In this document: piece by piece, positions 5,387 to 28,315 of the stretch
How positions within the stretch are numbered: the first letter of the stretch is position 1
Layout of the letters: the number at the start of each line of letters is the position of its first letter
Assembly: GCA_030390025.1 (NCBI GenBank)
Contig: CM059432.1
Coordinates: 21,330,001 to 21,394,000, forward strand
Length of the DNA stretch: 64,000 nt
Reading direction: 5' to 3'
Source: Squalus acanthias
Taxonomy: Eukaryota
The notes under the pieces: generated by a model
What the model was told of the DNA's origin: nothing
The model's database searches: none
What the model saw: only the letters and a program-made list of their open reading frames with translations
Translations under genes and position numbers: made by a program

Positions 5387-6569
5387 CTTAGATGGGGACC
5401 AAGATGACTAGCAGCAGCAGGAGCAGCAGCACCAGCAGGAGCCTGCTACTCATAGACCTACAGCTCCACAGGAGAGAGTGGATTAGCAGAAGAGTGCAGC
5501 TCGAAGGAGGCCATACCTGGCACATAGGGTCTACAGGCAGAGGATAAGCTTCCTCGACATGTCGGAACACCAGTGTCTCAGGAGGCTCAGGCTGTTGCGT
5601 CAGGTGGTGGCAGACATTTTCAACCTGCTGGAACAAGACCTGCTGCCAACTGGACCTGGTGGCCATGCTTTACCAGTGGCTGTCAAAGTCACCACCGCCC
5701 TCAACCCTTTTGCCTCTAGATCCTTCCAGGGATCTGCCGGAGACAGGTGCAGGATCTTGCAGTCAGTGACACGCAAATGCATAAGACAAGTGACTGATGG
5801 CTTGTTTGCCAGGGCAGCCAATTATGTACACTTTGCCTGGAATAACGCCAGTCAGAATGAGTGGGTGCTTGGGTTTGCGGCTCTGGCTGGCTTCCCACAG
5901 GTGCAGGGCATCATCACTGCACACATGTGGCAATTAAGGCACCCCCAGATCTCCCAGAAGAAGTCAACAACCGCAAGGGCTTCCACTTAATCAATATGCA
6001 GCTGGTGTGCAACCACAAAAAGATCTTTAGGCAGGTATGCGCAAGATTCCCTGGCAGCTGCCATGATGCTTTTGTCCTGCGGCAGTCCACCTTCCCTAAT
6101 CTCTTCGCACTTTAAAGCAGAGTTACCGACTGGCTGCTCGGAGACAAGGGATACCCACTTAAAACGTGGCTGATGACGCCTCTCAGAAACCCAAGAATGA
6201 GGCCCAGGAGCGACACAATGAATGCCTTTTGACCACCAGTTGTGTCATCAAATAAGCCATCAGCATGCTGAAGATACACTTCAGGTGCCTGGACAGATCT
6301 GGAGGCGCCCTTTAGTATGCACCAGCCAGGGTCTCCAGAATGGCTATGGTGTGCTGCGCTCTGCACAACATTGCGCAGCAGCGAGGTTTGGACTTGCAGG
6401 AGGAACAAGGCACAGAGCACAGAGCCTTTTGGAGGATTCAGAGGAGGAGGAGGAGGAGGAGGGGGATGAGGAGGACGAGGACGAGAAAGTGGAAGGTGAT
6501 GCGGGCAATGCACCACCAGCAGCACACAATGCTGCCCGGGATGCCCTCATTATTGTGAGACTCACTTAG
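5387..6569 (+). pseudogene. Harbinger (HARBI1-like) DDE transposase, frameshifted
   Basis: Motifs [57 protein letters not shown] and an acidic tail spread over several frames. Confidence 0.9.
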
Positions 6570-7680: not shown

Positions 7681-8450
7681 GGGGTGAAATTGGGTATCGC
7701 CCCGTTTGGGGCACTAACCTTTGAAATTTTGAAAATTTACCGACAGGCGTTAAGGATTCTGAACTTCTACTAAATTGGGTGTTAGCGCCCCAGGAAAGAA
7801 GTGGGGCGCTAAATCAAGCGCTAATGAACTCAGTGGGGTGCTTCAGGGGCGCTACCAGCAGAGCGCTAATGAATTTCAGGTGCAATGTATTCAGCAATGA
7901 TCCTTCACACTGGTTCTTCCTGCTCTTAAAGGGGAGGTTGCATCATTGTGCAGATGATACTCATTTTCAGCATTGCTGGCTTTGAGGCGACCTACGAGCA
8001 AGTGAATCCCCTGATGGCTATGGCTGTTCCCACTCCCAGGGAGAGAGCTCGTTGGTTCACAGACGTGGCATTGGAGGCATTGGTGGCTGGAGTGGAGCGA
8101 AGGAGGGCAATGCTGTCCCGGCCACTGGAAGGAGGCCATTGCCCCAGATGTTCAGGGCAATGTGGAGGGAAGTGGCCCAGGAGGTCTTGGCCAGTAGTGT
8201 GGTGGAACGCAGCCTGACACAGTGCCGCAAGAAATTCAACGACCTCAGTCGGGTGGTCAAGGTGAGTACATACTTCAACTGCTCCTACATACCAGCATCT
8301 GAACCTCAGTCTGTGCACACTGCGCCACCACTCACCCACCAAACATCTTCACCTACTCAAACTCACATCCACATCTCATGCCCTGCCTACAATCACAGTT
8401 ATTCAAAGATGGCAGGCATAGCTCCCAAACTCATAGCTGTACTCTGACTC
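7681..8450 (+). mobile_element. Harbinger left end with first exon of the Myb/SANT accessory gene (truncated)
   Basis: GGGGTGAAATTGGG terminus similar to 34213; RARWFTDVALEALV and W.EVAQEV...QCRKKFNDL followed by a GTGAGT donor. Confidence 0.8.
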
Positions 8451-9455: not shown

Positions 9456-10242
9456 ATGATATGGTGTGAGTCAGATTTGGATGATAACATTATAATCCTG
9501 ATTCCCTGACCCATGCTCCCATCTGGTGAGGCCCCAATCTGCAAGTGCAGCCTCACTGAATTTGCCCTTATACCCTGGCATGAGTCGACACATTCAGGGG
9601 AGGAATGTAAGGGGTGGGCGGGGGGGGCGGGGGGGGGGGGGGGATGGAAGACTGCAGAGAAAATTGGCGCAGACATAAAAGAAAAACCATGAGTGCTAGA
9701 AATCAGAAATACGAGTTGAAACTGCACAGCAGTTTAGTCAGCATCCGAAAGGGAAAGGCAGGTTAGCATTCTGGGCCGACTCTTTGTTCTCATGAAAGAT
9801 GTTGACTCATTCTGTGCTTTTGAAGCAATTTCTATTGTTACTGATAAAATATTTAGGGATAACTTTCTGATAGTCAAAAAATGTGCGCACTCGGTGTGCG
9901 AGAGCAGCAGCATGTAGTCAGAAGATTATCCCTTTTACCTCAGCGGAACTGTATGGAGCCTTAGGGAGGACCAGAGCGTCTTAATCTCAAGGTCTGTCAG
10001 GCCAGATCTAGGTTAGATGTTAAGAGGTGGTCCTTTTCCCAGAGAATAGTGGAACCGTGGAACAAGCTGCCGTTGTGCTTGTGCATTGAACACTGATTCG
10101 CTGAGTTCCTTCAAGTGAGAGCAGGACCTGTTTCTGGCTGGACCGAAGATCACCTTGAACAAGAGTTAGGTACCGTATAACATTAACCAGGTGTCCTGAC
10201 AATTCTGTTTCTCCATTCTCGAACGGAGAATGTCTTCCCACA

Positions 10243-12323
10243 ATCCGTACAGATTAGTGTGGGTTTAATAGGGTCTGCCTTTTCTAAAGCATACCGTAAT
10301 GCTGCGGCTTCAGCATATTGCGCTGTCTTATGGCCAAGGGGTATGGACAGTAATACTTCTGGATTAAAAGAATAGGAATCTCAAAGTCCCCACTACTATC
10401 CCCGTCCCAGCTGAGGATTGTTGGGATATCCCTTTTTTAATTGTCATTGAAGATCCATCACAGTAAATAACGAGATGATACTCTGTAAGCGGTCTCATAG
10501 GTATTTGTCTGATTCCCTCCTCCGTATCATCATCGTCCATGATGGGGAGATGCCCTAAGTCCATTTCTGGGGAGAGGAATTTAAAAATGAGTGTAGGATC
10601 ATTCAAGAACGATGCCCATTTATCATATCGGATCTGGGTGGCTCTTTTTTCATCAGAGGCCATCCTCAATACTGATCTTAAATTGGGAATCTCAGTATAG
10701 ATGGTAATGGGGTATTTCCCTTGAAGGGTTCTTGCCTTGATGAGGCATTGGACTACCATAGTCATGTCCCTTTCTTTTTTAATGTACCTCCTTTTGGCAT
10801 TGGAAAAGTTATAAGAATGGAACTGAATGGGCCCTATGCTCTTTTCATTATAGAAAACTGCAACTGCCACTTTAGGTGATAACCTGAGATGAATATTGAG
10901 GGGAGCTTGTAGGTCCCTCTGTTCCAGGTCTATGGCTTTTTGTACCTCTCGGCATAATTGTTGCAATTTTGAGTAATCATCTGGTGAAAATATGAATGGT
11001 CCTTTTGCTGCTTCGCCCACTCTAGCATACAGGGGGGCTGAGAGCTCGGCAAAGGTTGGCGTAAAGGATCGAGCAAAATTCAGGAGTCCTAAACTTGCTT
11101 GCAGATTTTTCAGAGTTTTAGGATATTGAATGGTGGCTAATTTTTCTTTATAGGATTGAGTTAATCCTCTACCGTTTCCAGTTATTCGCAGGCCCAGAAA
11201 ATCTACCTCTTCCCTAACTAGTTGACTCTTTTTTATGTTGATTAAGTACCCAGCAGCTGTAAGTCTGGATAAAACACTGTCAATGGCTTTCAAGTGCTCT
11301 TGGAGATTGTCATGTGACAGATATATATCGTCCACATAAGAATTGACGTTAGGTAGGTCTTTTAAAAGGTCAATGATGTGGGCTGAAAAGAGAACGGGAC
11401 TGTTTTGAAATCCCTGGGGCAATCTGGTCCAGCAGTACTGATAACCATCGGGTCCAGTCATCGCTGTTTTTGGCCAATCAGCTTTTTCGATTGGATGTGA
11501 CCAGAAGCCGTTTGCTAGATCAATACAAGATTTATATTTTTCCCTCGTGATTCCAGAGAGAAGGGCTGTGGAATTTTGCTGTTGTGCAGTATGTGGGGCC
11601 GTTACCCTATTTAAGGCTGTAGAATTGACCACTAATCTCCACCTCCCATCTGGTTTAGCAACACCAAACAATGGTGAATTAGTTCTAGGTGCCATTTTGA
11701 TTAAGATACCTTGTTCTGTTAGTTCTTTGAGCGTTGTTAGATCTATTTTTCCTTTGTGGTCTTGAATAGGCCACTGTTTTTTAGGTTTATTCCAGCCAGC
11801 ATCAAGTGGGTGGGGTTTGATGTCTATCTTTCCACATTGATTTGGATGGCGTTGTAGATAAGGGTAATATCTATTAATGAGTTGCTCGAGGAGGTCTTTG
11901 CCTCCCCCCTCTAGGCAAGTTCGATCAAGCTGTGTCCGAACATGTTTTTCCTTGTCACCCTGGTCTGTGGATGCTTCTACAGGTCTGGTTGAGATTTTAA
12001 GGTAATGTTTCATGGTCTGGTTGTCCTATAATGAGGGAACAGGCCAATTGTGGTACCAGTCCTACATCTAGGGTCACCGTGATTTCATATATGGTAATAG
12101 GTATTTTGTAAAAATTAATTATTTTGGTTTTAGCTTGTGTGAATCCCCCTGATGGTCTTTTACAAATTGGGCTCCCCAAATCTGTCCACTTAGTTTTTAT
12201 AATTGCAGGATCTATTACAGTGTAATCAGCTCCCGTATCAAACAGGGCCTTCACTTGTGTGTTTGTGGTCAAGGTTGCCAGGGCATAGGGGAATTCAAGA
12301 GGCCCTGGCTGGGTGCCAGGCCT
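10243..12323 (-). pseudogene. pol: Foamy-like pro-pol (aspartic protease, RT, RNase H), frameshifts at ~12013 and ~10380, truncated within RNase H
   Basis: LFDTGAD protease; IDLANGFWSHPI, YCWTRLPQGFQNSP, YVDDIYLSHD match spumavirus RT; RNase H YCDGS...SIPLGHKTAQYAE...ICTD resembles foamy SIPLGNHTAQMAE...VITD. Confidence 0.95.
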
Positions 12324-15300
12324 TCAATCCTGGGATTGTTCATCCTCAGGATCCTGAGTTTCATTTGCTGCTTTGTCTTTAATTATTTTAACTGATTTTT
12401 GTTCCTCCCTCTTGGGGGTATAATGTTTTCCAGATCCCTTAGGGGGTTTGTCAGACCGTTTATTATCTTGACGATCCTCCTGTTGGGGTGGACGTTGGTT
12501 CTGCCGGGAATCTTTTTGATCCCCATTTCGGTTTTCCCGGTATCCTCCCATGGCTCTCTGATAGTTTTGGCCAGTGTAAAAGCTGTCCCCATGGGGAGTC
12601 CACTGTCCTTCGCTTTCCTTTTGAGGTCTAGCCCCTCGTCTATCCCATCTTTCTGGGGAGAAATATTTCTTGTATTGTGGGCGAGTTGGGGGTGTAAACC
12701 TTCTGGAATACCCTCCTGGGGGTCCCGAGCCACGGGTTTGTGTCTGGGCGGGGTGGACTTGAGACTTGGGTCTATACAGTCCTTGTTTCTGAGTACCAAA
12801 GGTACCTTCTCCGGTTTTTTTATCCCTAGTTTCTGATCTCATTATAGGTTTAGTTTAGGGTAGACCTAAGAGGTCATGGTTTAATTGGATAATGCGATTG
12901 ACATTATCCCATCTTTGTTGGTTATCTCGATAATCTTTTAGAGCACCCTCACAGGCAAGTTTGAGGGCTGTATTTTGGTATTGATTGGCCAGGCAACCAT
13001 GGACAATGTACCAGTTATCCTGTGTAAGTACTTTGCCTAATCTGTAGGTAGCTACCAGCCCTTTAGTTGTGGCTGTATTAGTGAGTATTTCCTTGATGGA
13101 ACCCATTACATGCCCTCCCTGAGTTGCCATGAGAACATAGGCGTATATTTGAACCCAGTTGTTACACTGGTTTAATGGGGGAATTAAGTCTGAACTTAAT
13201 ATCATTTGTAGTAGTTGCCTCAGGTGTTGGGCATTCCAATCTTGGCAACAGGTTTCCAATTTATCAAGGTTAGTTAGAATCCAGCAGGTTTTTTCCTGGC
13301 TGGTGTTTCCCGGTCTACCACACATTGTGTAGATAGAGCTCAGGTTTACTTGACCTAGGGGCGCAATGTGTGATTGCTGGGGTTGGCTTACTGGACATAG
13401 AAACATAGAAACATAGAAAATAGGTACAGGAGTAGACCATTCGGTCCTTCGAGCCTGCACCGCCATTCAATGCGTTCATGGCTGAACATGCTACCTCAGT
13501 ACCCCATTCCTGCTTTCTCGCCATACCCCTTGATCCCCTTAGTTGTGAGTGTTATATCTAACTCCCTTTTGAATATATTTAGCGAACTGGCCTCAACAAC
13601 CTTCTGTGGAAGAGAATTCCATAGATTCACCACTCTCTGGGTGAAGAAGTTCCTCCTCAGCTCAGTCCTAAATGGCTTCCCCTTAATCCTTAGACTGTGA
13701 CCCCTGGTTCTAGTTTTCCCTACCATTGGGAACATTCTGCCCGCATCTAATTTGTCTAAACCAGTCAGGATTTTAAATGTCTCTATAAGATCCCCCCTCA
13801 TTCTTCTGAACTCCAGAGGATACAAGTTCAGTTGACCCAATCTTTCTTGATATGTCAGTCCGGCCATCCCAGGAATCAATCTAGTGAACCTTCGCTGCAC
13901 TCCCTCAATAGCAAGAATGTCCTTCCTTAAGTTAGGTGACCAAAACTGCGCACAATACTCCAGGTGTGGCCTCACCAAGGCCCTGTACAACTGTAGCATC
14001 ACCTCCCTACTCCTGTACTCAAATCCCCTTGCTATGAAGGCCATCATTCCGTTTGCTTTCTTGACTGCCTGCTGCACTTGCATTCCCACCTTCAGTGACT
14101 GATGTACCATGACGCCCAGGTCTCGTTGCACATCCCCTTTCCCTAATCTGCCACCATTCAGGTAATAGTCCGCCTCTCTATTTTTACCACCAAAGTGGAT
14201 AACCTCACATTTATCCACATTGTACTTCATCTGCCATACATTTGCCCATTCACCCAACCTGTCCAAGTCACTCTGTAGCCTCCTAGCATCCTCCTCATTG
14301 TTCACACTGCCTCCCAATTTAGTGTCATCCGCAAATTTGGAGATATTACATTTAATCCCTTCGTCCAAATCATTAATATATAATGTAAACAGCTGGGGTC
14401 CCAGCACCGAACCCTGCGGTACCCCGCTGGTCACTGCCTGCCATTCTGAAAAGTACCCATTTACTCCTACTCTTTGTTTCCTGTGTGCCAACCAGTTCTC
14501 AATCCACGTCAACACATTACCCCCAATCCCATGTGCTTTAACTTTGCTCACCAATCTCTTGTGTGGGACCTTGTCGAAGGCCTTCTGAAAGTCCAAATAC
14601 ACCACATCTACTGGTTCCCCCCTGTCCACCCTATTGGAAACATCCTCAAAAAATTCCAGAAGATTTGTCAAGCATGATTTCCCTTTCACAAATCCATGCT
14701 GACTTGGACCTATCATGTCGCCACTTTCCAAATGGTCTGTTATGACATCTTTAATAATTGCTTCCATCATTTTACCCACGACCGATGTCAGGCTGACCGG
14801 TCTATAATTCCCTGCTTTCTCCCTCCCTCCTTTTTAAAAAAGAGGGGTTACATTGGCCACCCTCCACTCCATCGGAACTGATCCAGAGTCTAAGGAATGT
14901 TGGAAAATGATCGTCAATGCATCCACTATTTCCAAGGCCACCTCCTTAAGTACTCTGGGATGCAGACCATCAGGCCCCGGGGATTTTTCAGCCTTCAGTC
15001 CCATCAATTTTCCCAATACCTTTTCCCGACTAATAAGGATTTCCCTCAGCTCCTCCCTCTTACCAGATCCTCTGACCCCTTTTATTTCCGGCAGGTTGTG
15101 TGTGTCCTCCACAGTAAACACTGAACCAAAGTATTTGTTCAATTGATCCGCCATTTCCTTGTTCCCCATTACGACTTCCCCTGTTTCCGACTGCAGGGGA
15201 CCTACGTTTGTTTTTACTAACCTCTTTCTTTTTACATATTTATAGAAGCTTTTGCAGTCCATTTTAATGTTCTCTGCAAGCTTCCTTTCATATTTTATTT

Positions 15301-16855
15301 TCCCTGCCCTAATCAAACCCTTCGTCCTCCTCTGCTGAGTTTTGAAGTTCTCCCAGTCCCCGGGTTTGCTGCTACTTCTGGCCAATTTGTATGCAACTTC
15401 CTTGGTTTTAATACTATCCCTGATTTCCCTTGTTAGCCATGGTTGAGCCACCTTCCCTTTTTTATTTTTATGCCAGACCGGGATGTACAATTGTTGTAGT
15501 TCATCCATGCGATCTCTAAATGTCTGCCATTGCCCTTCCACTGATAGCCCCTTAAATATCGCTTGCCAATTTAACCTCGCCAATTCACGCCTCATACCCT
15601 CAAAGTTGCCCTTATTTAAGTTCTGGACCATGGTCTCTGACTTAACTGTTTCCTTCTCCATCCTAATGTAGAACTCCACCATACTATGGTCACTCTTCCC
15701 CAGGGGGCCTCGTACCACAAGATTGCTGATTAGTCCCTCCTCATTACACAACACCCAGTCCAGGATGGCCTCCCCTCGAGTTGGTTCCTCAACATATTGG
15801 TTTAGGAAACCATCCCTTAAACACTCCAGGAAATCCTCCTCCACCGTATTGCTTCCAGTTTGAGTAGCCCAATCTATATGCATATTAAAGTCACCCATGA
15901 TAACTGCCGTGCCTTTTTTGCACGCACCTCTGATTTCCTGTTTCATACCCTCCCTCACCTCACTACTGCTGTTTGGAGGTCTGTACACAACTCCCACTAA
16001 CGTTTTCTGCCCTTTGGTGTTCTGCAGCTCAACCCATATTGATTCCACATCCTCCAAGCTGATGTCCTTCCTAGCTATTGCATTAATCTCCTCTTTAACC
16101 AGCAATGCTACCCCACCCCCTTTTCCTTTTATTCTATCCTTTCTGAATGTTGAATACCCCTGGATGTTCAGTTCCCAGCCTTGATTGTTCTGGAGCCACG
16201 TCTCTGTAATCCCAATCACATCGTATCCGTTAACATCTATTTGCACAGTCAATTCATCCACCTTATTACGGATACTCCTTGCATTAAGACACAGAGCCTT
16301 TAGGCTTGTTTTATTAACATCCTTTGTCCTTTTAGACTTATGATTTAGGACCAGTAATCATTGCGCCTCCAGCATTTAGATAAGATTGAGCTAGTGCCTG
16401 TCAGCATTGATTATAATGGATTCTAAGCTGTCTATAGTTTTCTCAAAGATTCTGGTCATTTATTTCATCATGAGCTTGCCACCTTAACCGGAATCCATGG
16501 CCCCCAGGAGCATAGGCTGCTCCGGGTCCTACTATTCGACCATGGTTGCCACCACCTTGTTGGGCACCGTTCATTAGGCCTCCCAATTGTGCGGGTGTGC
16601 ACCTTATCATTAAGGAATTTAGCGTATTTGTAGTATTTGTTTGATTATCCCACTGGATATTCTGTATCCCCTGGTTCTGGGGATCTTCATCAATCGTGCC
16701 ATGAGTTCTAATGGCTCCGTCGGCATCAAAGCCTTCTATTTCAAAAATTATCACTTGGTTTTGTGGAGGTACAGGGATAGGATTATTTCCCCTAATAAAG
16801 CAATCGTTTGAATTTCCTAATAAAAGACTTGGCCAATTCCGACATGGTTTGCCAT
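12324..16855 (-). pseudogene. gag: Foamy-like gag, split by a CR1 insertion, with an in-frame stop at 12855
   Basis: ATG in ACAAAATGGCA at 16855; central region CNNWVQIYAYVLMATQG...GLVATYRLGKVLTQDNWYIVHGCL...HDLLGL resembles the spuma capsid; G/R/Q-rich C-terminus with no CCHC knuckle. Confidence 0.85.
13395..16340 (-). mobile_element. Young 5'-truncated CR1 LINE; near-complete ORF2 (APE endonuclease + RT) with one nonsense codon at 14834
   Basis: LNARSIRNK, ITETWL, GDFN, SDH, YLDFQKAFDKVPH, FADDTK; the 475-aa and 427-aa ORFs share a frame; (TTCTATGT)n tail at ~13395-13420. Confidence 0.96.
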
Positions 16856-17098: not shown

Positions 17099-17116
17099 CA
17101 CACACATTGGGCGCCA
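17099..17116 (-). promoter_or_regulatory. Primer-binding site, tRNA-Lys type
   Basis: TGGCGCCCAATGTGTGTG vs tRNA-Lys1,2 PBS TGGCGCCCAACGTGGGGC (14/18, first 10 exact), 2 nt after the LTR-terminal CA. Confidence 0.9.
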
Positions 17117-17118
17117 AC

Positions 17119-18362
17119 TGAAGGGGTAATTACTAGCCCTAGCCCCTTTAGGGCTACCCCGGATCAGGCGTATTCCTCAGACGTTCACTTTCAACTAAAG
17201 TTTGAGGTAGCCGAATCCTAAAGACACTTAATTGGGTCTAAAGGGAAGGAACAACCTAAAGATGTTACCGTCCTCCAGATAGCACTTTTAATAAGTTTAG
17301 CTAGACTGTAACATTCTGGATATTATGAGGGTCCGGAAAACTCCCTCAGAATTCTGCAACTCCTCACCAAAGAGCGTATAGAGATTGAGTTTGCGAGTTT
17401 GATACAGAAGTATTATGTGAGACAATTCTAAAAATACATAGATTTATTAAAGAACCGACATGTAATTACAGTAGGTGTTTCAATCGCAACATTAACAGTT
17501 CCAAAAAGAGAAAGCTTACAATTCTTATTATCAAATCTTAACTTCGCTACATTTTTACAGTTCTTAGTCTTATTCAGAATATCCACCAAAATCAAATACA
17601 GTACTGTTGATTCCCAAGACACAAAGAGTTGTAGACTTACAGAGCCTGCCTCTGAAGTCTGAGAATCGCTTTGGCCCTTTACAGCGAATCTATCATCCCA
17701 TTTGAAAGTTCAATATTTATATCCTTTTTCAGTGGTATTTCCTTTGAAGTTTTCTGCTGATGTAAGCTAATTATCTCTAGTCATTTTTCTGCTGACCCCT
17801 GCTATTCTTACAGTCAGTTCAGCTGGTAGCAATGCAGACTCGTGTCTCTCCTTTAGGTGTTCGAAGCTTACCATAAAAAATGGTGTAGCTGCAGGTGCAT
17901 CTATTTGATGTCATTCTTACCAAGGTCTTTTGTTTGTGTCTTTTTACGACATGTAAATTAAAACACCTCAACCAGGGTGATCTATCCAATTCTTAGTTAC
18001 CTCAGCTGGTTGCAACACAGAATCGTGTCTCCGGTGTTTCATTTGATGTCATTTTTACGAAGGCATATGTTTCTTAATTTTATGTGTTTCTTTCCGAAGT
18101 GTAATTTAGAACACCTTAACAGGGTGTACCATTGTGTTCTTTCCAAAGCTTCAGACTTCAGGAGCCTCCAACCTCCTGTTTCAATAAGGTTAATGATTCA
18201 GTGTCAACAACTTATCTTATCTCAATAGCCTGTATGCTGTTTACAGCTTTAGATTGTTAAGGCTTCCAGATTTCCAAACCCAGTTTGTCATGTTTTAATA
18301 AGGTCAGAATTCTTTCATAGAATGGTGTATTTTTCTGAATAGGCATGGCTCATTCTTTTACA
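17119..18362 (-). repeat. 5' LTR of the foamy-like ERV (~1.24 kb)
   Basis: Ends in CA at 17119; TATAAA 17721-17716; GTAAGT donor 17640-17635; AATAAA 17448-17443; outer TG boundary at 18362 or 18370. Confidence 0.75.
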
Positions 18363-19730
18363 GTGTTACATGCAGTTGTGTGGGACAGGCTGGATGGACT
18401 AGTGGGTCTTTTCCTGTCTGTCATTGTTCGTATGCTCGCATGCCACCCAGTCTGTGCCGCGTCTGATGAAAGTTAAAAAGAATGCATTGTAATACTGTAT
18501 ATTATCACATTGTACTCTGCTTCCCTCAGCTAATGAGCGACAAAAACTCACTTTCGATGGCTGGACAAGTCTGTCTATTGCAGGTTGCTAATCCAATTGT
18601 TAGACAACTCTCGTTTGGGACCTAAACATAACCATTTTATTTTTTGCTGCAAAACATGATTGTGCTTTTTTTAAATTAAAGTACTAAAGGCCCTCTTGGG
18701 ATTTTAAGCACTGTATTGGAATCGATGAGCCTTAACCTCCAAATAATGGATTGCAGTGATACATTGGGATTTTCCCATTTGTTAATTATGAACCTGAATG
18801 ATAATGAAATGGAGAATTTATGATCGCACTGAACAAATAAAGCTTGCTTTCCTATAGATCCATTAAGGGTAAAATGCAACTTTGGCGGGGGATGCAGAAC
18901 ATGCGTTAGTGGATCGATCACCCATTATACACCCCAACTGATTTTCCTTTCCATTGACTTCCATTGTCACCGTGAGACGCTATCCTACCTTTTACTTTCA
19001 GACACTGACTGGTCTGCTACTTATTTCTAGCAGTTTTCTACCGGATTCCAGCTTTTTCGAGTTTTCTTTTAATTTTCCTCTTTGTTCTTTGGAAATTGAG
19101 CCGTGTATCACGCCACTGTCAAAAGAAGCATCACAATGCGGCATTTTCACCGATCGACACAAACAGCTCGTCACTTTAGACAATGGCAATCAAAGAGCTG
19201 CCATTTTCCGTTAATATATCACATAATTTCAGAGTCCGGCACTGAGTATTCTCTTTTCATTATCAAACGGCCTGATATTTGTGATTTTAATTGAATTAAG
19301 ACTGACAGATTGTGCAGTGATGAATCCTTTATTCTCTGGTTTTGGTTCTGGGCAGGGTACAGAAGTCAACAAATCAGAATTTAAATATCACATCTCATTT
19401 TCACACAGCCTGTTCCCTCTAAATATTTGCATAGTGCATTGCAGAATTCATACCCTATTTTCAAAGGGAATTGGAAGTTTTGATGTTGTTGTCATGATTT
19501 TTTTCTACAAAGAGGTGTCATTGTTTCTTTACAGAATCGGCTTAATAAAATTAAATTATTATTGTGCAATTCAAGCAGTTCCAGTTCAAAGATTTCGTAT
19601 TATACGCATAGATATATATTTTGTTGATACAATAGTTTGAATTTGAATTTTTTTTCACAGCGGTCTAGTTTGCATTGTTGCAAATGTTGTATTTTAATTT
19701 GAGTATGAAGTAGTTTGTAATCTAAATGGG

Positions 19731-20639: not shown

Positions 20640-21151
20640 TGTTGAAGTTTCGACTTCCGAGTAAGACTCTTTAAACAATATCGTCAAAGAAGGCTTTATT
20701 ATTTACTTTACTTGCAAGGAGAATGCAACGATGACAGACTGAAGAAATCACAGAAAATGGAAGATCTTATACACTGAAAACACAAGCTTCCCATATCACA
20801 TGACATGTTGTTTAAAGTAAGCTAAGTTACGAGTTAAAAAACATAAGAAATGCCTTACAATGAGACTAGCTAATCTCTACAAAATGGAGTCTGTTTGTCT
20901 GTTCTTCTCCCACCAAGGCCAAGGCACCTGGCTGTTTACTTCACTATTCCTTGGTTATCTCAAGTTGATTAGAAGAAGCATAATTTGTTCTGTACTATGA
21001 AAACAACATAGTCTGCAAAGTTTAATTTCATTTCCATGAGAAGTCATAAACAACTTCTTTCTTTATTCAATACAAGTCAGAGTCGGCCATTTTGGATCAC
21101 TCTTTGTGTCTAGGAAGCCATTTTGTCTGAGACAAAAACTGCACTTCCACA
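20640..21151 (-). repeat. 3' LTR (512 bp)
   Basis: Direct repeat of 27787-28315; adjacent PPT AAAAAAGGGGGGAA at 21165-21152. Confidence 0.97.
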
Positions 21152-21430
21152 TTCCCCCCTTTTTTGTCCTTCTCGGACAAAATAGCTCAATTTAACCCTT
21201 TTGGTCTCTCTTGTCGGTTCCTGTACCAAATTTGGATTTTGGCCAGGGATGGCAACTTCTTTTCTGTTTTAACCATCCTCGGGATTATACCTGTATTGAT
21301 GGCTGACCTTATTTAAGATTGTCTCTCCTTTCTGTCTATCCTTAGGGTTGGGCATGTAATTCTTTCAATTCTAATTTGTCCAGTCTTAATTTTGGCCACT
21401 GTAACTGGCATCATCTTGGTCATCTAATCC

Positions 21431-22829
21431 TTAAAAATTTATCTTACCCAATCGTCTTAGCTCTTCCCCTAGGGGACTGTCCTTCTCTTCCTCTTCATTT
21501 ATTTCCCTCTGTACTATCATACTTCCTCCAGGTATAACTGCCTTACCTAGCCTATTACAACAGCATTTAATCATTGTGACAAACAGAATTACTGCTACCA
21601 TTACTACTAATCCATACAATAATATTTGTCCCATTGATCCCAGCCATCCTCCCAGTATCCAGTCAAACCATCCTTGGTTCTTTGGATTCTTATACTGACT
21701 CACTGCATCTCTTATGTGTTTAACTATGTTAGTTATATTTTCTGAACTGTCTGGGATATAGGTACAACATTCACTCCCTATCAAAGCACAAGTTCCTCCT
21801 TTATTTGCCAACAGATAATCTAATGCCATTCGATTCTGCAATGTCATTACTCTTATAGCTAATATTTCAGCACTCATTTCGGACAATCCTTCCTCAGTTT
21901 AATTTGCCACTTTTTCTATCAGATCTGCTAGCTCGTTTACTGCTCCCATTAACTTCCCTATTCTGTATGGGGCTATTAATACTCCAAAGACTCTTTCATA
22001 AGTTGCTATCTCTCTTTTACTTCTTTGGAATTCATAATGTTCTCCTATATTGTCTAAAATGTGGATATAAGGTACTACATAACCCAAATAGCAGGACCCT
22101 GTCCAGTTATGTGGCAACCATGGATACGCCTTGTTCCCGCATATAAAATAGGTGCAATTATAGGCCGTCAAGTTACCCTCTCCTCCCATCCATATTCGGA
22201 TAGGGCCGCCTGTCCAGTGGGACCTACTGATTTTATTATTTACTTTAGTCCAGTCAAACTGAAAAAATCCCTGCTCAAGCAGGCCAGGAATTGGTGGTTG
22301 CCACATGACTGTTTGATGACAGGAACTCTCTCCGACTTTCTTTTCATCCTGCATCCTGCTTACTGCAGCCTGCTTTTTTTAAACATAATGCCCCTTGTAG
22401 TCTACCGACTCCTGAGGTATTAGTTAATACAAGAAACGGGGGTGTTCGAGTATGATTATAATTGGGCTGATACCACCCCTGGAAGGTGGTTAGGTTATAC
22501 CCTGCTGATCTCCACTGTTCTACATCTGAGGTCTTATCCGGGTCCCTTGAACTGTTTCTTCTTATTACCCATTCTGCTGTTTCGGAAGTATTAAAGGGAA
22601 TTGATCTGAGGGGGGTCCCTCCCGTGGTGTGAATAGGTATATGGGCACAGACCCAACAACTGGATCTACCACTAATTTTAGCATGCTCGTAAGACATGTA
22701 CAAGAAAGTGTTAACGTGTAATTCTCGTTTCTTTCGGGATCCTTCCCCACCTCTTTGGCACGTCATACGTATCAGTCCGATTAATATGCAAAAAATATAA
22801 GTAAAAGCTTCATTGTGTAAGTCCTTCAA
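21431..22829 (-). pseudogene. env: Gamma-type retroviral env, one frameshift (~22350) and one stop (21899)
   Basis: CWVC isomerase motif, RSKR furin site, fusion peptide, ISD LQNRMALDYLLANKGGTC, CX6CC (CALIGSECC), TM anchor. Confidence 0.95.
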
Positions 22830-23312
22830 AATTTAATTTTTTTGACTCCCTTTTTTCTGTCTATTACCCCCCACCCTGTGTTGTTTTGCATTTTACGTTT
22901 CCCTTATCACTTCTATTTGTCTTTTGATGCTTGATATTCGACCTTGCTGGCATTTCTGCTATCTATTCCTGGCTGCATGTTGTCAGTTTCTGTTCTAAGA
23001 ATTAAAACCCATCTTTGAATCTAACAGCTATTTCTTACAATTCCCTTCTTTGAGAAGGAAATAACCCTTATTGACTTCTCACAATCGGCTCTTGACTAAT
23101 CTAGCTAGTTCTTATTGCTCTCTCAACTTGGGCATTAGTTAGTAGGGAGTCTTGAAGATTTCCCCCTTCTAATAGTCCATTCCGGTGTTCCAATTCTGCC
23201 CCGCCTGGGGTATCCTCTGTTTCTTCTATCTTTCCTGATGTTACCCCGCCTGGGGTCTCCTCTACATTGCTTCGGATCTTCTCTTTCGGTGTGCTCAATT
23301 TGTTAGTGCTGG

Positions 23313-23880
23313 TTAGTCATGGGCATGAGTACCCAATTGGCTTGTGTATCTTACTACATAGGTTACATATATCAAATACACTATCATTACAAGTTGGAGA
23401 ACTACCAGAGCGTGTGAAATAATATGAATGTAAGGGTGTGCTGATGTATTAAGCCCAATATCCCACCCGTTGTCCCCTATGCTGTCAATTTCAATATCTA
23501 TTCTCGAGTTGTCTTCCTTCAGAACATAAACATGCTTTAGGGAGGAGTTCAGTCGCATCATGAGCTCACTGATAACCTTAGACAACAGGGGAATGTCGTA
23601 TCTGAATTATGCCACATAATTGTGCAGCTCATACTTAAGTATCTCATTTACTGTCAGTTCACTTGAGCATAGGTTTCGATATTATGTAAAACGTGTTGAT
23701 TGATGGGACAGGTCCTGTTAGATCCGTAAAGCATGGTAGTTGCGGTAGTAGTGACACAGGAGGCACCACCAAAACCACCTCATACTGGATTCGCACTGGT
23801 TTTTCCCACGCTCTGTTACCTACAAAACACAATTATTACAGTCACAGTTAAATTCAGTCTTACAATCATTTCAAGTGACA
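23313..23880 (-). pseudogene. env: Remnant of a second, non-gamma glycoprotein C-terminus (tentatively lokiretrovirus-like env)
   Basis: Cys-rich GGASCVTTT...YGSNRTCPI, then a heptad-like stalk, WDIGLN...HPYIHIISH and a hydrophobic TM ALVVLQLVMIVYLIYVTYVV. Confidence 0.5.
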
Positions 23881-25649
23881 TTACAGTTTAACATCTAATC
23901 AACAAATCATGGACTTAAAAGATTCTCCAGATCTCTCTTTTACTCATATCCATCTTGTGGATAATTCTTACTAAACATGATTTCTCCTTAGCCCTCAATT
24001 GTCCCAATTCAGATTCCAGGTAACTCTCCACTTCAACTTCAATTTCAATCCCTCTAACAGGTACCAGTGTATTTAACTCTATTCTGATTGTTTCATTAAT
24101 TAGATAGTTTCTCGATGGAGTATGTGTCAATGCTTTAAAAGTTGTCTCGCTCTCCTGAGCCACATTAACCATTTCATGTTTTGCTGTTGTCAAGTAACTG
24201 AGCATGTCTGAGACCCGTTCTTCAGTGCAAATTCAACATACATTTCCAGATGGTAATCGCTTCATACGTAACAAATCACATTTGCACACTCATACCGGTA
24301 TTTCAATATCATGCCACATGTGCCTTTCTCGGGCTTTCAGGTATCTTATCATAAGATTGTCTTTGTTCGTCTTCCTCTGCATGGTCCCGATGTCTTGGAT
24401 AGTGGCCAGGCTATCATATTCAGTTTTCTTAAAAAGTTCATTATAGGCAGGGACACAAATGTCTCCAAGAGAAAGCTATCAATTTATTATTCTTAGCTAC
24501 ACTTTCCTGACTTTCACCAGAAAGTTTTTTTAAAATTCCCATTCAGCAGTGTAATTCTCCTGTTTCAATCTTACACCTTCAATCACTTCCTCTCTAATTA
24601 TTATTCATATCTCATTCATGAGCCCTGGAGAAACTTTACTGTCCAGTACAATATTTAAGATTGAAAACATAGATCAAACATTCTCACTAGGTCCAAGTTA
24701 TTAAAACTTTTTATTTATCATTATTTTAGAGGATCTTTTATTTTCCCAAAAGTAACCCAATATATATATAGTGCCTGAGTCCATTTTGTTATTACAACAT
24801 TATCCCAAAATCCAAACAGCAGTACTGTTGAATTGATAGGTTTTGTCAATGTTCAATTTCATTTCTATCAATTTATCTTATCAATTCCAATTTCAGAAAC
24901 AAATGATTACCAGGCTAGGTGGTTTATACAGTGTTTTAACATTAGAGACAGAAGTGCTGCAATTAGTTTACAAGGTAACTTCCATATAACAAAGGAAAGA
25001 AGAGACTCCATTGTGACTCTACTTAGAGCCCAAGGAGTTAATTTTTCAAATCATAATTTTCCTTCTGTCACTGTGGGGAAACATTAACTTAAAATTAATA
25101 ATGTCCAATATCTTTAAATGTCATCTAAAGTTGTTGCTCGGTGAACTTAATCAGCTGTCAGTGGAAAGGGTTAACTCCTTTGCAGGTCTTTAAGAAGGTG
25201 AGCGAAACATTGTCAGGTGCACGCAATTGCATCACTTCACATAAATTTAAAAAAACTTTCCCGATCCAAAAAAGCAGTTGTGTTTTCACACTTTAACTAA
25301 ACACGAACAGAACAGATAAAACAAAACAAAATAGCACATGCTTGCAGAAGCAGTAAATTACATCATATTTCTTATTGTCCTTTCTTCAGATGTCTTTCCA
25401 AAATACTGTAAAAACATTGAATATAACTGGAGAAAAATTAGTTTTTCACATTTAAGCAAATCAAATCAAACTGCGTTGGAAGATTTCACCATAGCAACCG
25501 CGACTCCAAGGTTAAATCTTAGACCGAAACTTAATCTTTTGTTAAACAAACTTTTTGTTGTTCTTCTCAGTTTTTACACACCAGCTTAACTTAAATTGTA
25601 GTTCAAAGTTTTTTTTTCTAATTCTTGGGGCACAATGCTTTCCCTGCAA

Positions 25650-25800
25650 AGTCTGATATAAAATTCCTGTCTATCCCTGACAGTAAAGGCAAATTTCCCT
25701 TGTGATTCCTCTGCCAATGGTATGGACCAGAACCCGTTCTGTATCCAAGACTGTAAATATTTCAAAATCTGGTTTCAGACCATTAAATATCTTATTCAAT
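25650..25800 (-). pseudogene. pol: Short retroviral RT remnant
   Basis: Manual translation LNKIFNGLKPDFEIFTVLD/NGFWSIPLAEESQGKFAFTVRDRQ with one frameshift. Confidence 0.8.
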
Positions 25801-26440
25801 GCGGTCTACACAAATTTACACCAACCAGAATTTCACCGTGCACAATGAAAGTCTGGTTTTTAATAGGTTAATTAACCTCAATAATTCCAATTCAATCCAG
25901 ATCAATTTAAAAAAAAAACTAACCAGTGTCAGTTGGAAAAGAAAGAAACCATAGTCACATTAACAAAGAAACAATTACCCATGACTTGTAAACATTCAAA
26001 TTAATTTTCTTTCCAGGCACATTGGCAACTGTGACTTCAAGGCTGAAGCTTATACCTCTTTTGTAAAACAATTAACAAACTTAAACCAACAACGCTTGAT
26101 TATCATTCAAGACAAGTCTTCAAAGGGTTAAACAGCTTTTAGCTCTCTGTACAAAAGAGTGGGTGGAGCTAAAACATAAACAAAATGACAGACACCTTTT
26201 TTTTTAGACAGATTTTTTCAGACAAAATAATACTGTAACTTAACAAACCTAAACATTCACAGTCAGTTTTTCTTTCACCCTTTTCACACACACTTTCACC
26301 AACTGAGATCCCAGTATTCCTTTTAAGATTCCTTTCACTCAACAAATCTTGTGTATTAGCTTTTATCTCGGCACAGACATTAATAACTTCCATGCCGATA
26401 AAACTTTAAATTTCTTCTTTTTTTACATTCCTTTCAGATT

Positions 26441-27032
26441 TCAATGTCGGTAAATTCCTTCTACATACACCTGTAGTCCCTTTTCTGAACAAATTATTGT
26501 TGCTTGCATTTTGCATAGCAAATCTCTCCCTAAAAGGTTCATAGGAGCATTGTCTGATAGGAGAAAGGCATGTTGGTCAGAGAAATTGTCTGCTTGTATT
26601 GAATAAATAGTATTCTGGTCCGTCGGTGTTGCGGAAGCTGCTTGCTCCATTAAGAGGGAAACTTTATTCTTTTGGTCCCTATTTCTCTCCTGAATTCCTT
26701 TCAGATTTTGTGTCAATTCAGGAGTTGTTTTATGTCTCCAATCTAGGCAGACTAAAGTCAGTGGTTCTTTAAGTTCTGTTCTGAGACCATTTACGAGGGC
26801 ATTGATTAAAGGAATCTGGTAATTTTCTTTGGTCATTCCAATTTGCGAGACAGTCCTCTAGACATGTAATTCTGTCTAGGTTAAAAGTTCCATCAATAGG
26901 GAACGGGTGTTTGTCATTCTTGGTCCATTTAGACCAATCAGACAAATCCCTTGTGGATGTCCGACCACAGTTCTGGAAGATGTAAAAAGCTGGAGTTCCT
27001 TTTTCTGGGATCTTACTCTGTGAAGTTCCCAT
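26441..27032 (-). pseudogene. gag: Internally deleted epsilon-like gag (MA and end of CA) fused to the protease C-terminus
   Basis: MGTSQSK myristoylation signal, FPIDGTFNLD, ALVNGLRTELK, then HAFLLSDNAPMNLLGRDLLCK. Confidence 0.85.
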
Positions 27033-27760
27033 CTTAGTAAAGTTTTAATTATACTAGGCACTCTTCTTCTAAATCGCAAGTTTCACCCTTTACCCCCTTA
27101 CGATTATTTCTGACCATCCAAAGTTCTACAAGACAATAACAAGAACTAACAACAATCAAGACAATTATAAGTAAGATGTAAAAGCCCAAACAGGCAAACA
27201 AATCAAGTAATCAAACATTTAACCTTATACTTTAAACTAAACAAATAGTCAATTCTCAGTTTTGCATTGTTCTCCACTACAAACTGAGTCCTTAACATTT
27301 AACTTATAGTCTATACTCTGCCGCGAGATTCTTTTTTTTTTCTTCTTTCACGGCTCAAGGGGCCCACCCTTGATACTGCAGTTTTAATCTTTTATCTAAA
27401 CCTTTCTGCAGTTTTAATCTTTTAGCGCTTTCTCATAACCTGGTACCTTTACTCAGTCCGGGATACAACCCTGTCGACTTTTTCCCTTGCCTCTTTTGCC
27501 CGATAGTTTTGAAACTTGAGCTGTCAGTATCCTCCTCCTTTTTTTTAACGTTAAAAAAGCAAAAGCTACAAGATTCAACTCAAATCTAAAACACAAGTCT
27601 TAACAATCGCAGTACTCCTGTCGGAAGAAACAGACCACACCAATTCAGTATCTAATGAGAAATCCTTTTTTTGTGATAAAACATCACTGTGGCCATTCAG
27701 GATTTGTCACTAGAAATTCATGGTGTCTTTTGTCCGTGACTTACCGAAAGGTAGCAAGCG

Positions 27761-27778
27761 ATCTCGGTGGGACCTCCA
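27761..27778 (-). promoter_or_regulatory. Primer-binding site, tRNA-Gln
   Basis: TGGAGGTCCCACCGAGAT, the 18-nt complement of the tRNA-Gln 3' end; GTAAGT donor at 27744-27739 just downstream. Confidence 0.93.
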
Positions 27779-27786
27779 AGAAATAC

Positions 27787-28315
27787 TGTCGAAGTTTCGA
27801 CTTCCAAGTAAGACTCTTTAAACAATATCATCAAAGAAGGCTTTATTATTTACTTTACTTGCAAGGAGAATGCAATCATAGCCAAATAGCTACGATGACA
27901 GACTGAAGAAATCACAGAAAATGGAAGATCTTATACACTGAAAACACAAGCTTCCCATATCACATGACATGTTGTTTAAGGTAAGCTAAGTTACGAGTTA
28001 AAAAACATAAGAAATGCCTTACAATGAGACTAGCTAATCTCTACAAAATGGAGTCTGTTTGTCTGTTCTTCTCCCACCAAGGCCAAGGCACCTGGCTGTT
28101 TACTTCACTATTCCTTGGTTATCTCAAGTTGATTAGAAGAAGCATAATTTGTTCTGTACTATGAAAACAACATAGTCTGCAAAGTTTAATTTCATTTCCA
28201 TGAGAAGTCATAAACAACTTCTTTCTTTATTCAATACAAGTCAGAGTCGGCCATTTTGGATCACTCTTTGTGTCTAGGCAGCCATTTTGTCCGAGACAAA
28301 AACTGCACTTCCACA
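27787..28315 (-). repeat. 5' LTR (529 bp)
   Basis: Matches 20640-21151 except about 6 substitutions and a 17-bp indel (counted by eye). Confidence 0.97.

Follow-up and report, generated by a model that had tools for sequence, protein, structure and literature searches.

An in-frame UGA codon separates gag and pol in a foamy-like endogenous retrovirus family of Squalus acanthias and is a candidate readthrough site

Introduction

Production of Pol apart from Gag is the textbook contrast between foamy viruses and all other retroviruses, and in the mammalian foamy viruses Pol has a spliced mRNA and an AUG of its own (PMC3705302; here and below, papers are cited for the excerpted passages concerned). 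The Pol of the prototype foamy virus also functions as a Gag-Pol fusion (PMC3705302). Here, we describe a foamy-like endogenous retrovirus (ERV) of Squalus acanthias in which pol follows gag in one reading frame, with a single TGA between them. The copy that we started from lies in a stretch of 64,000 nucleotides (assembly GCA_030390025.1, contig CM059432.1, positions 21,330,001 to 21,394,000), hereafter called the window. Comparison with its relatives suggests that Pol of this family was probably made as a Gag-Pol fusion by low-level readthrough of the UGA, which is the best explanation of the sequences presented below.

The element resembles the mammalian foamy viruses (prototype, simian and feline foamy virus; PFV, SFV and FFV) in that these provide its nearest named Pol matches (38-39%; for the reverse transcriptase (RT) in the window the best matches are simian foamy Pol, at 38-39% identity), in its PF20672 Gag domain, and in the PF03408 Env domain of its relatives, but it differs from them in having pol in frame behind a TGA without an ATG, in its DTGAD protease site, and in that most copies lack env. 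The lack of a pol AUG of its own argues against the label 'canonical spumavirus', not against placement in the foamy lineage. Since a Scyliorhinus torazame protein falls in its clade, the element probably belongs to the same broad group as the endogenous foamy viruses of cartilaginous fishes (Wang, Chen, Cui 2023, J Virol) and ERV-Spuma.0-Sca (PMC10699275). The foamy-like ERVs (FLERVs) of newt and teleosts, NviFLERV-2, AciFLERV and AliFLERV, share with it a foamy-like Pol and aquatic hosts, but have an own pol ATG at their junctions (PMC5512871 supplement), which lies in another frame, in an overlap in the newt element and as TAATG and TGATG in the teleost elements (PMC5512871). For NviFLERV-1, the pol start is given as 'uncertain', in an overlapping frame (PMC5512871).

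A gag-stop-pol arrangement in a single frame is shared with gamma- and epsilonretroviruses, SSSV (salmon swim bladder sarcoma virus), snakehead retrovirus (SnRV) and the class III element XtERV-S, but these are not foamy viruses; Moloney murine leukemia virus (MoMLV) has a UAG, an 8-nt spacer and a pseudoknot, and XtERV-S, the junction codon of which is TGA, is described as 'not particularly FV-like' (FV, foamy virus; PMC8278194). UGA-AGA and UGA-AGU are found at the gag-pol junctions of fish and frog retroviruses (PMC13517186). A preliminary description of the window, in which readthrough was first proposed, left room for an earlier report of such a junction in fish FLERVs. The layout proved to be known for XtERV-S and for aquatic gamma- and epsilon-like retroviruses, and among the papers listed in literature searches none had a title or opening lines of its abstract describing an in-frame gag-stop-pol arrangement in a foamy virus, although the figures or supplements of Wang 2023 and Chen 2021 may show one.

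Results

The junction codon across the family

In the window copy, a frame ending in ...EQSQD is followed by TGA (12326-12324, minus strand) and continues in the same phase as RPGTQPGPLEFPYALATLTTNTQVKALFDTGAD, as had been described. The upstream frame is true gag, since a match to the foamy Gag domain falls in that frame (PF20672, E 3e-14). The provirus is composed as follows:

17117..18363, minus strand: 5' long terminal repeat (LTR) of the foamy-like provirus, from blastn against another natural copy, both LTRs of which match, and from the LTR pairs of other copies
17099..17116, minus strand: primer binding site (PBS) of the TGGCGCCCAA type, from the sequence and found at the same place in 7 of 10 long copies; we take it to correspond to tRNA-Lys1,2
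16348..16855, minus strand: 5' part of gag including the ATG, broken in the window copy
13397..16347, minus strand: long interspersed nuclear element (LINE) inserted into gag in the window copy only, from the gap against other copies and LINE-type open reading frames (ORFs) at 13496-16357
12327..13396, minus strand: 3' part of gag, with a foamy capsid-like central domain and a basic C-terminal region (PF20672, E 3.3e-14)
12327..12352, minus strand: 10-bp hairpin, the last base of which is directly 5' of the stop (fold, z -2.97, 5/500 shuffles)
12324..12326, minus strand: gag stop TGA, codon 526, in frame with pro-pol, context UGA-AGG
12300..12323, minus strand: hairpin of the preliminary description, with zero spacer 3' of the stop (folding)
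12277..12309, minus strand: competing 8-bp GC stem with a 17-nt loop, 14 nt 3' of the stop (folding), a putative stimulator
12000..12323, minus strand: protease frame without an ATG, DTGAD site at codon 29 past the stop
10195..12025, minus strand: RT and the start of RNase H (PF00078, PF03539); the window copy is truncated past here

The window copy itself is dead: its gag is interrupted by a LINE and by a premature TAA at 12857-12855, a private one-base insertion near 12015 disrupts the pro/RT frame, and the 3' end has been lost. A single such copy proves nothing, and therefore the family was examined. A 701-nt query gave 243 candidates in the same genome, 40 of which scored at 96-100%, and an exact-flank pattern around the junction matched 138 places. 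At these 138 places the junction codon was TGA in 103 copies, TGG in 31 and TGC in 4, and no other codon occurred. An alignment of 26 copies that starts at the gag ATG places the stop at codon 526 (22 TGA, 3 TGG, 1 TGC), and this is the only column with a stop in most copies. Other stops occur in at most five copies each, and these sporadic gag stops lie mostly at CGA codons; gag indels are nearly all private. A further 40 copies were picked by their gag domain, with 9 more gag matches left out, and the 32 readable junctions among them consisted of 25 TGA, 1 TAA, 2 TGG, 2 TGC, 1 GGA and 1 TTA. The basal copy g29 carries TGA in frame. The in-frame TGA is thus the family state, and not decay. 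Decay private to one copy is ruled out by the family-wide TGA, and an origin of the TGA from CpG decay of an arginine codon was rejected as well, since neither CGA nor CAA was found among the 138 exact-flank matches. A sense codon in other copies, or a pol ATG, had been named beforehand as what would speak against readthrough; most copies turned out to have TGA, though a minority has a sense codon, and no pol ATG appears.

The sense-codon minority raises the question whether the replicating virus had an open Gag-Pol frame, in which case TGA would be a nonsense allele and the Gag-only majority carrying it would have been mobilised by the Pol of sense copies. TGG or TGC recurs in 11 of 90 full-gag copies, the junction position ranks 13th of 649 A columns by variation, the env-bearing copy e22 has TGG, and a relative in the same RT clade, the protein P0042 discussed below, is a single ORF. 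We nevertheless regard this as unlikely, since the env-bearing copy that has diverged most (87.9% between its LTRs) has TGA in frame, basal env-less copies have TGA as well, the stop is located at the end of an intact 525-codon gag, and the sense codons of full-gag copies are scattered over the copy tree instead of forming one clade, and differ from each other (TGG, TGC, TCA, TTA, GGA). The copy trees were built from projected alignments, without unrelated flanks. In the pro-RT tree, two inverted copies about 15 kb apart on one contig (L011 and L016, G000:C24) are neighbours and have TGA and TGG, respectively, as junction codons.

Translation probably enters pol from upstream

The absence of a pol ATG, noted before for the window copy, holds in the family: none of 30 aligned copies has an in-frame ATG between the stop and the protease site. 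The catalytic Asp is codon 29, no copy has an indel between the stop and this codon, and in 18 of the 30 copies an in-frame ATG first appears at codon 104. An ATG at codon 30 in four copies replaces the T of the DTG site. An out-of-frame ATG that had been considered as a possible pol start was rejected, as no shared indel brings it into frame (0/30 copies) and it sits within the protease N-terminal region. Residue 15 past the stop aligns with residue 10 of the HIV-1 (human immunodeficiency virus 1) protease (weak E-values, best 4e-4), so that the protease should start about six codons past the stop. Because the codons just past the stop correspond to the protease N-terminus, translation must enter from upstream, most simply from gag. 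With pol in frame behind the gag stop and without a start codon of its own, the enzymes were likely made via occasional readthrough.

A spliced pol mRNA, in which an upstream AUG-bearing exon is joined to an acceptor just past the stop, would be in line with the foamy ancestry of the element and with the weak pol acceptor known in foamy viruses (PMC3705302), and an in-phase AG at +16/+17 would generate an exon from codon 6, near the predicted protease N-terminus. This acceptor has only 6 pyrimidines in its 15 upstream bases, however, and none of the 14 AGs between -150 and +45 has more than 7. Splicing would also leave the single-ORF relative and the loss of the stop in protease-keeping derivatives (see below) unexplained, and we consider it improbable. 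A 993-nt gag deletion common to many copies was examined as a possible retro-copied splice and rejected as such, and this too speaks against splicing, since it ends in AT..AG with 5 nt of microhomology, and not in GT..AG. No joint just past the stop was found among the joints listed for contigs of four runs (two of them guessed to be RNA), although contigs cannot show absence. Contigs of several runs fuse early gag to RNase H-region sequence (L061:1983-2041), pointing to further deletion derivatives.

The stop could also be bypassed by A-to-I editing of the UGA to a Trp codon, by non-AUG reinitiation, or by a small internal promoter. Of the 35 alternative codons 31 are TGG, the stop lies between two hairpins, and the yeast element Tca2 has a promoter at its junction (PMC2194720). 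However, A>G and T>C rates in the family are equal (0.0089 versus 0.0095, no strand excess), which disfavours editing, TGC and TCA cannot be editing products, most TGG copies belong to the gag-deletion class, and the earliest CTG and TTG in this frame (codons 15 and 18) lie within the protease fold. Together, these bypass routes seem quite improbable.

RNA structure at the junction

The hairpin that had been proposed as the readthrough stimulator exists as described (-15.2 kcal/mol), but it is a minor fold in its context and a poor candidate for this role, because it begins at the first base past the stop, inside the ribosomal mRNA channel. About 11-12 nt past the A-site codon occupy this channel, and known stimulators begin after a spacer of at least 8 nt (PMC13517186). 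The hairpin alone is modest (z -1.65, 10/200 shuffles; z -1.97, 18/500 shuffles), and its mean pairing probability over 30 copies is 0.14-0.35, versus 0.57-0.90 for the competing downstream stem, which reaches 0.90 with the first bases past the stop masked (z -3.15, 3/500 shuffles). Among 332 folding windows along gag-pol of one copy, the one with the greatest stability is that of the 60 nt surrounding the stop (z -3.7, 0/500). Judged by folding, the abutting hairpin is unlikely to be the working element, and the stem 14 nt past the stop is, if local structure helps, probably the better candidate stimulator. A MoMLV-type arrangement of UAG, 8-nt spacer and pseudoknot was not found at the junction, and an Rfam search of the junction gave no match.

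Family structure, env and selection

In ten long copies, the LTR and PBS are followed by gag, a pol of about 1,276 codons, a short remaining stretch, a purine tract and the 3' LTR. LTR pairs were present in nine of them; the main pairs show 94-99% similarity in eight, with a single rearranged copy at 87-93%. In all 10 long env-less copies examined env is deleted: compared to env-bearing copies 3-4 kb is gone, and only the env start that overlaps pol is kept. A foamy-type Env (PF03408, over the cut-off) was found at six loci, which match the family by about 84-94% in gag/pol. The env-bearing copies are degraded; four of the six loci lack the junction, and e17 has TGA in frame. In e20 just a short stretch separates env from the 3' LTR, the region in which foamy viruses have accessory genes and an internal promoter. 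By its Gag domain, its position in the RT tree, its PBS and its env-bearing relatives in the same genome, the element is foamy-type. Assignment to the lokiretroviruses, which are the sister group of all other retroviruses and have no foamy Gag or Env, was considered and rejected, as the foamy Gag and Env profiles match and the RT is nearest to mammalian foamy viruses, in a tree that held no named lokiretrovirus.

Within-family selection tests were mostly neutral. Between env-bearing and env-less copies, shared changes in the RT comprised 16 synonymous and 2 non-synonymous, versus 64 and 63 private changes (p 0.002), and in the RNase H/integrase (IN) part 11 synonymous and 4 non-synonymous (p 0.01). 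These patterns show that Pol was functional, and its RT under purifying selection, while the env-bearing and env-less lineages diverged.

A gag-deletion class that has often lost the stop

We classed 143 distinct copies by gag and junction codon, a near census and not a random sample, since nearly all exact-flank copies of both kinds were included. Full gag was found in 90 copies (79 TGA, 7 TGG, 4 TGC), while 44 copies have the in-frame 993-nt gag deletion in common (20 TGA, 23 TGG, 1 TGC); 9 were unclassed. Within the deletion class, a sense codon was present in 22 of the 25 copies that keep the protease site, versus 2 of the 19 that have lost it. Because the copies are kin and 3 to 6 changes suffice, this pattern is suggestive and no test. 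It would suit, suggestively, an element without capsid whose sole product is a Pol fusion started at the gag ATG. In the deletion-TGG lineage, synonymous changes outnumber non-synonymous ones 7 to 4 in the protease (a post hoc hint only; binomial p 0.012), and the RT count is 5 to 11. In 40 of the 143 copies the protease site is missing through a recurrent deletion at about +90 to +150.

Relatives and direction of evolution

The RT tree comprised 29 of 43 rows, with near-duplicates and fragments excluded. In this tree, the element falls within the foamy-like RT clade (100/99) and forms one clade (97/93) with P0042 and the Scyliorhinus torazame protein. This in-frame clade is sister to the mammalian foamy viruses (87/83), the newt element is next (93/87), and the teleost elements are further out. 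P0042, the second-best match among cluster representatives, is a protein of 1,687 aa in which a Gag-like half precedes protease, RT, RNase H and IN in a single ORF. It has a DTGAD site like the element, with a similar FP motif upstream; its Gag-like half was recognised by Atlas features (0.91, a lead only), and BLAST gave no match to the Gag of the element. No close relatives of P0042 were found in protein collections, no related loci in the viral and metagenome contigs searched, and no protein homologue of residues 1-700 of a natural gag-pro-RT frame. As an unbroken foamy-clade Gag-Pol ORF, P0042 (a Logan protein, from a 10,956-nt contig) could come from a young or exogenous virus.

In the preliminary description, readthrough was taken to make spliced Pol a derived trait. 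The tree does not support this direction, as the element nests among lineages with an own pol ATG, and forcing the in-frame clade outside all of these was rejected (p-AU, 0.021; a post hoc test, devised after the tree). Those newt and teleost proteins of the tree that include their N-terminus also start with a Met, located 19-30 residues ahead of the protease site. Given the own ATG of the newt and teleost elements and the tree position between newt and mammalian foamy viruses, the in-frame layout is more likely derived within the foamy lineage, with moderate support. The nodes that place the clade are unstarred (87/83, 93/87), which keeps a chance for the opposite direction, with the in-frame layout ancestral and spliced Pol derived; by our own estimate this is doubtful, yet well short of negligible. 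Three further points speak against a derived layout: 10% of the bootstrap trees unite mammals and newt, the geometry of the teleost overlap is unlike that of newt and mammals and may have an independent origin, and the wider group contains another long single ORF, P0062.

Other features of the window

Direct repeats of 97-99% identity at 20640-21024 and 27787-28188 flank a gamma-type env-like ORF (PF00429, 21431-21898). From these repeats, 20640-28188 is judged to be a second, younger LTR element. ORF fragments at 5487-6569 and 7986-8447 resemble what we take to be a Harbinger-type transposase and its Myb/SANT partner.

Discussion

In the readthrough model, most ribosomes would halt at the UGA and release a 525-residue Gag, while a few would insert an amino acid there and translate the roughly 1,276 codons of pol as well. 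Any aid from local RNA structure would probably come from the stem 14 nt past the stop, and not from the abutting hairpin. The layout would have arisen inside the foamy lineage, in the clade to which the single-ORF Gag-Pol relative belongs as well. Loss of most of env would then have been followed by multiplication within the genome and by deletion derivatives, one of which lacks both the capsid region and the stop.

Several observations weigh against this reading. Sense codons recur across the copy tree and one of the two readable env-bearing copies (e22) has TGG, which makes the ancestral junction codon uncertain. The association of stop loss with protease retention amounts to only 3 to 6 tree changes and not to 44 events, and five of the TGG copies, all on unplaced contigs, cluster tightly with each other. 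Neither gag (p 0.85) nor the opening 180 codons of pol (7 to 3, p 0.16) nor the last IN part (p 0.83) showed significant selection, and shared variants within the family were uninformative for the 12 codons past the stop (5 to 7, p 0.16). The covariation that had been suggested as a check of the stem did not materialise: neither stem has compensatory pair changes, the copies being too alike, and the commonest stem variant merely converts G-C to G-U. P0042 is known from its protein alone, and a non-standard code in its gene call is possible. Finally, the flanks of the gag-UGA-pol junction of yeast Tca2, with its predicted pseudoknot, gave no readthrough on their own (PMC2194720).

One may tentatively picture a true foamy branch, probably of cartilaginous fishes, that returned to a Gag-Pol polyprotein, by UGA readthrough here and by an open frame in P0042, and in which an env-less family then split into stop-keeping Gag donors and stop-less, capsid-less Pol donors. 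Stop/start overlaps like TAATG and TGATG are the termination-reinitiation layout of some RNA viruses, and by analogy teleost foamy-like Pol may be independent of splicing too.

An in-frame foamy junction would be a natural counterpart of the engineered foamy Gag-Pol fusions, and its UGA would be a readthrough site suited to a short reporter. Whether fusion or separate Pol came first also becomes testable across the foamy ERVs of sharks, rays, coelacanth and amphibians. A natural foamy lineage with an in-frame gag-stop-pol arrangement would show that the separate-Pol trait can be lost.

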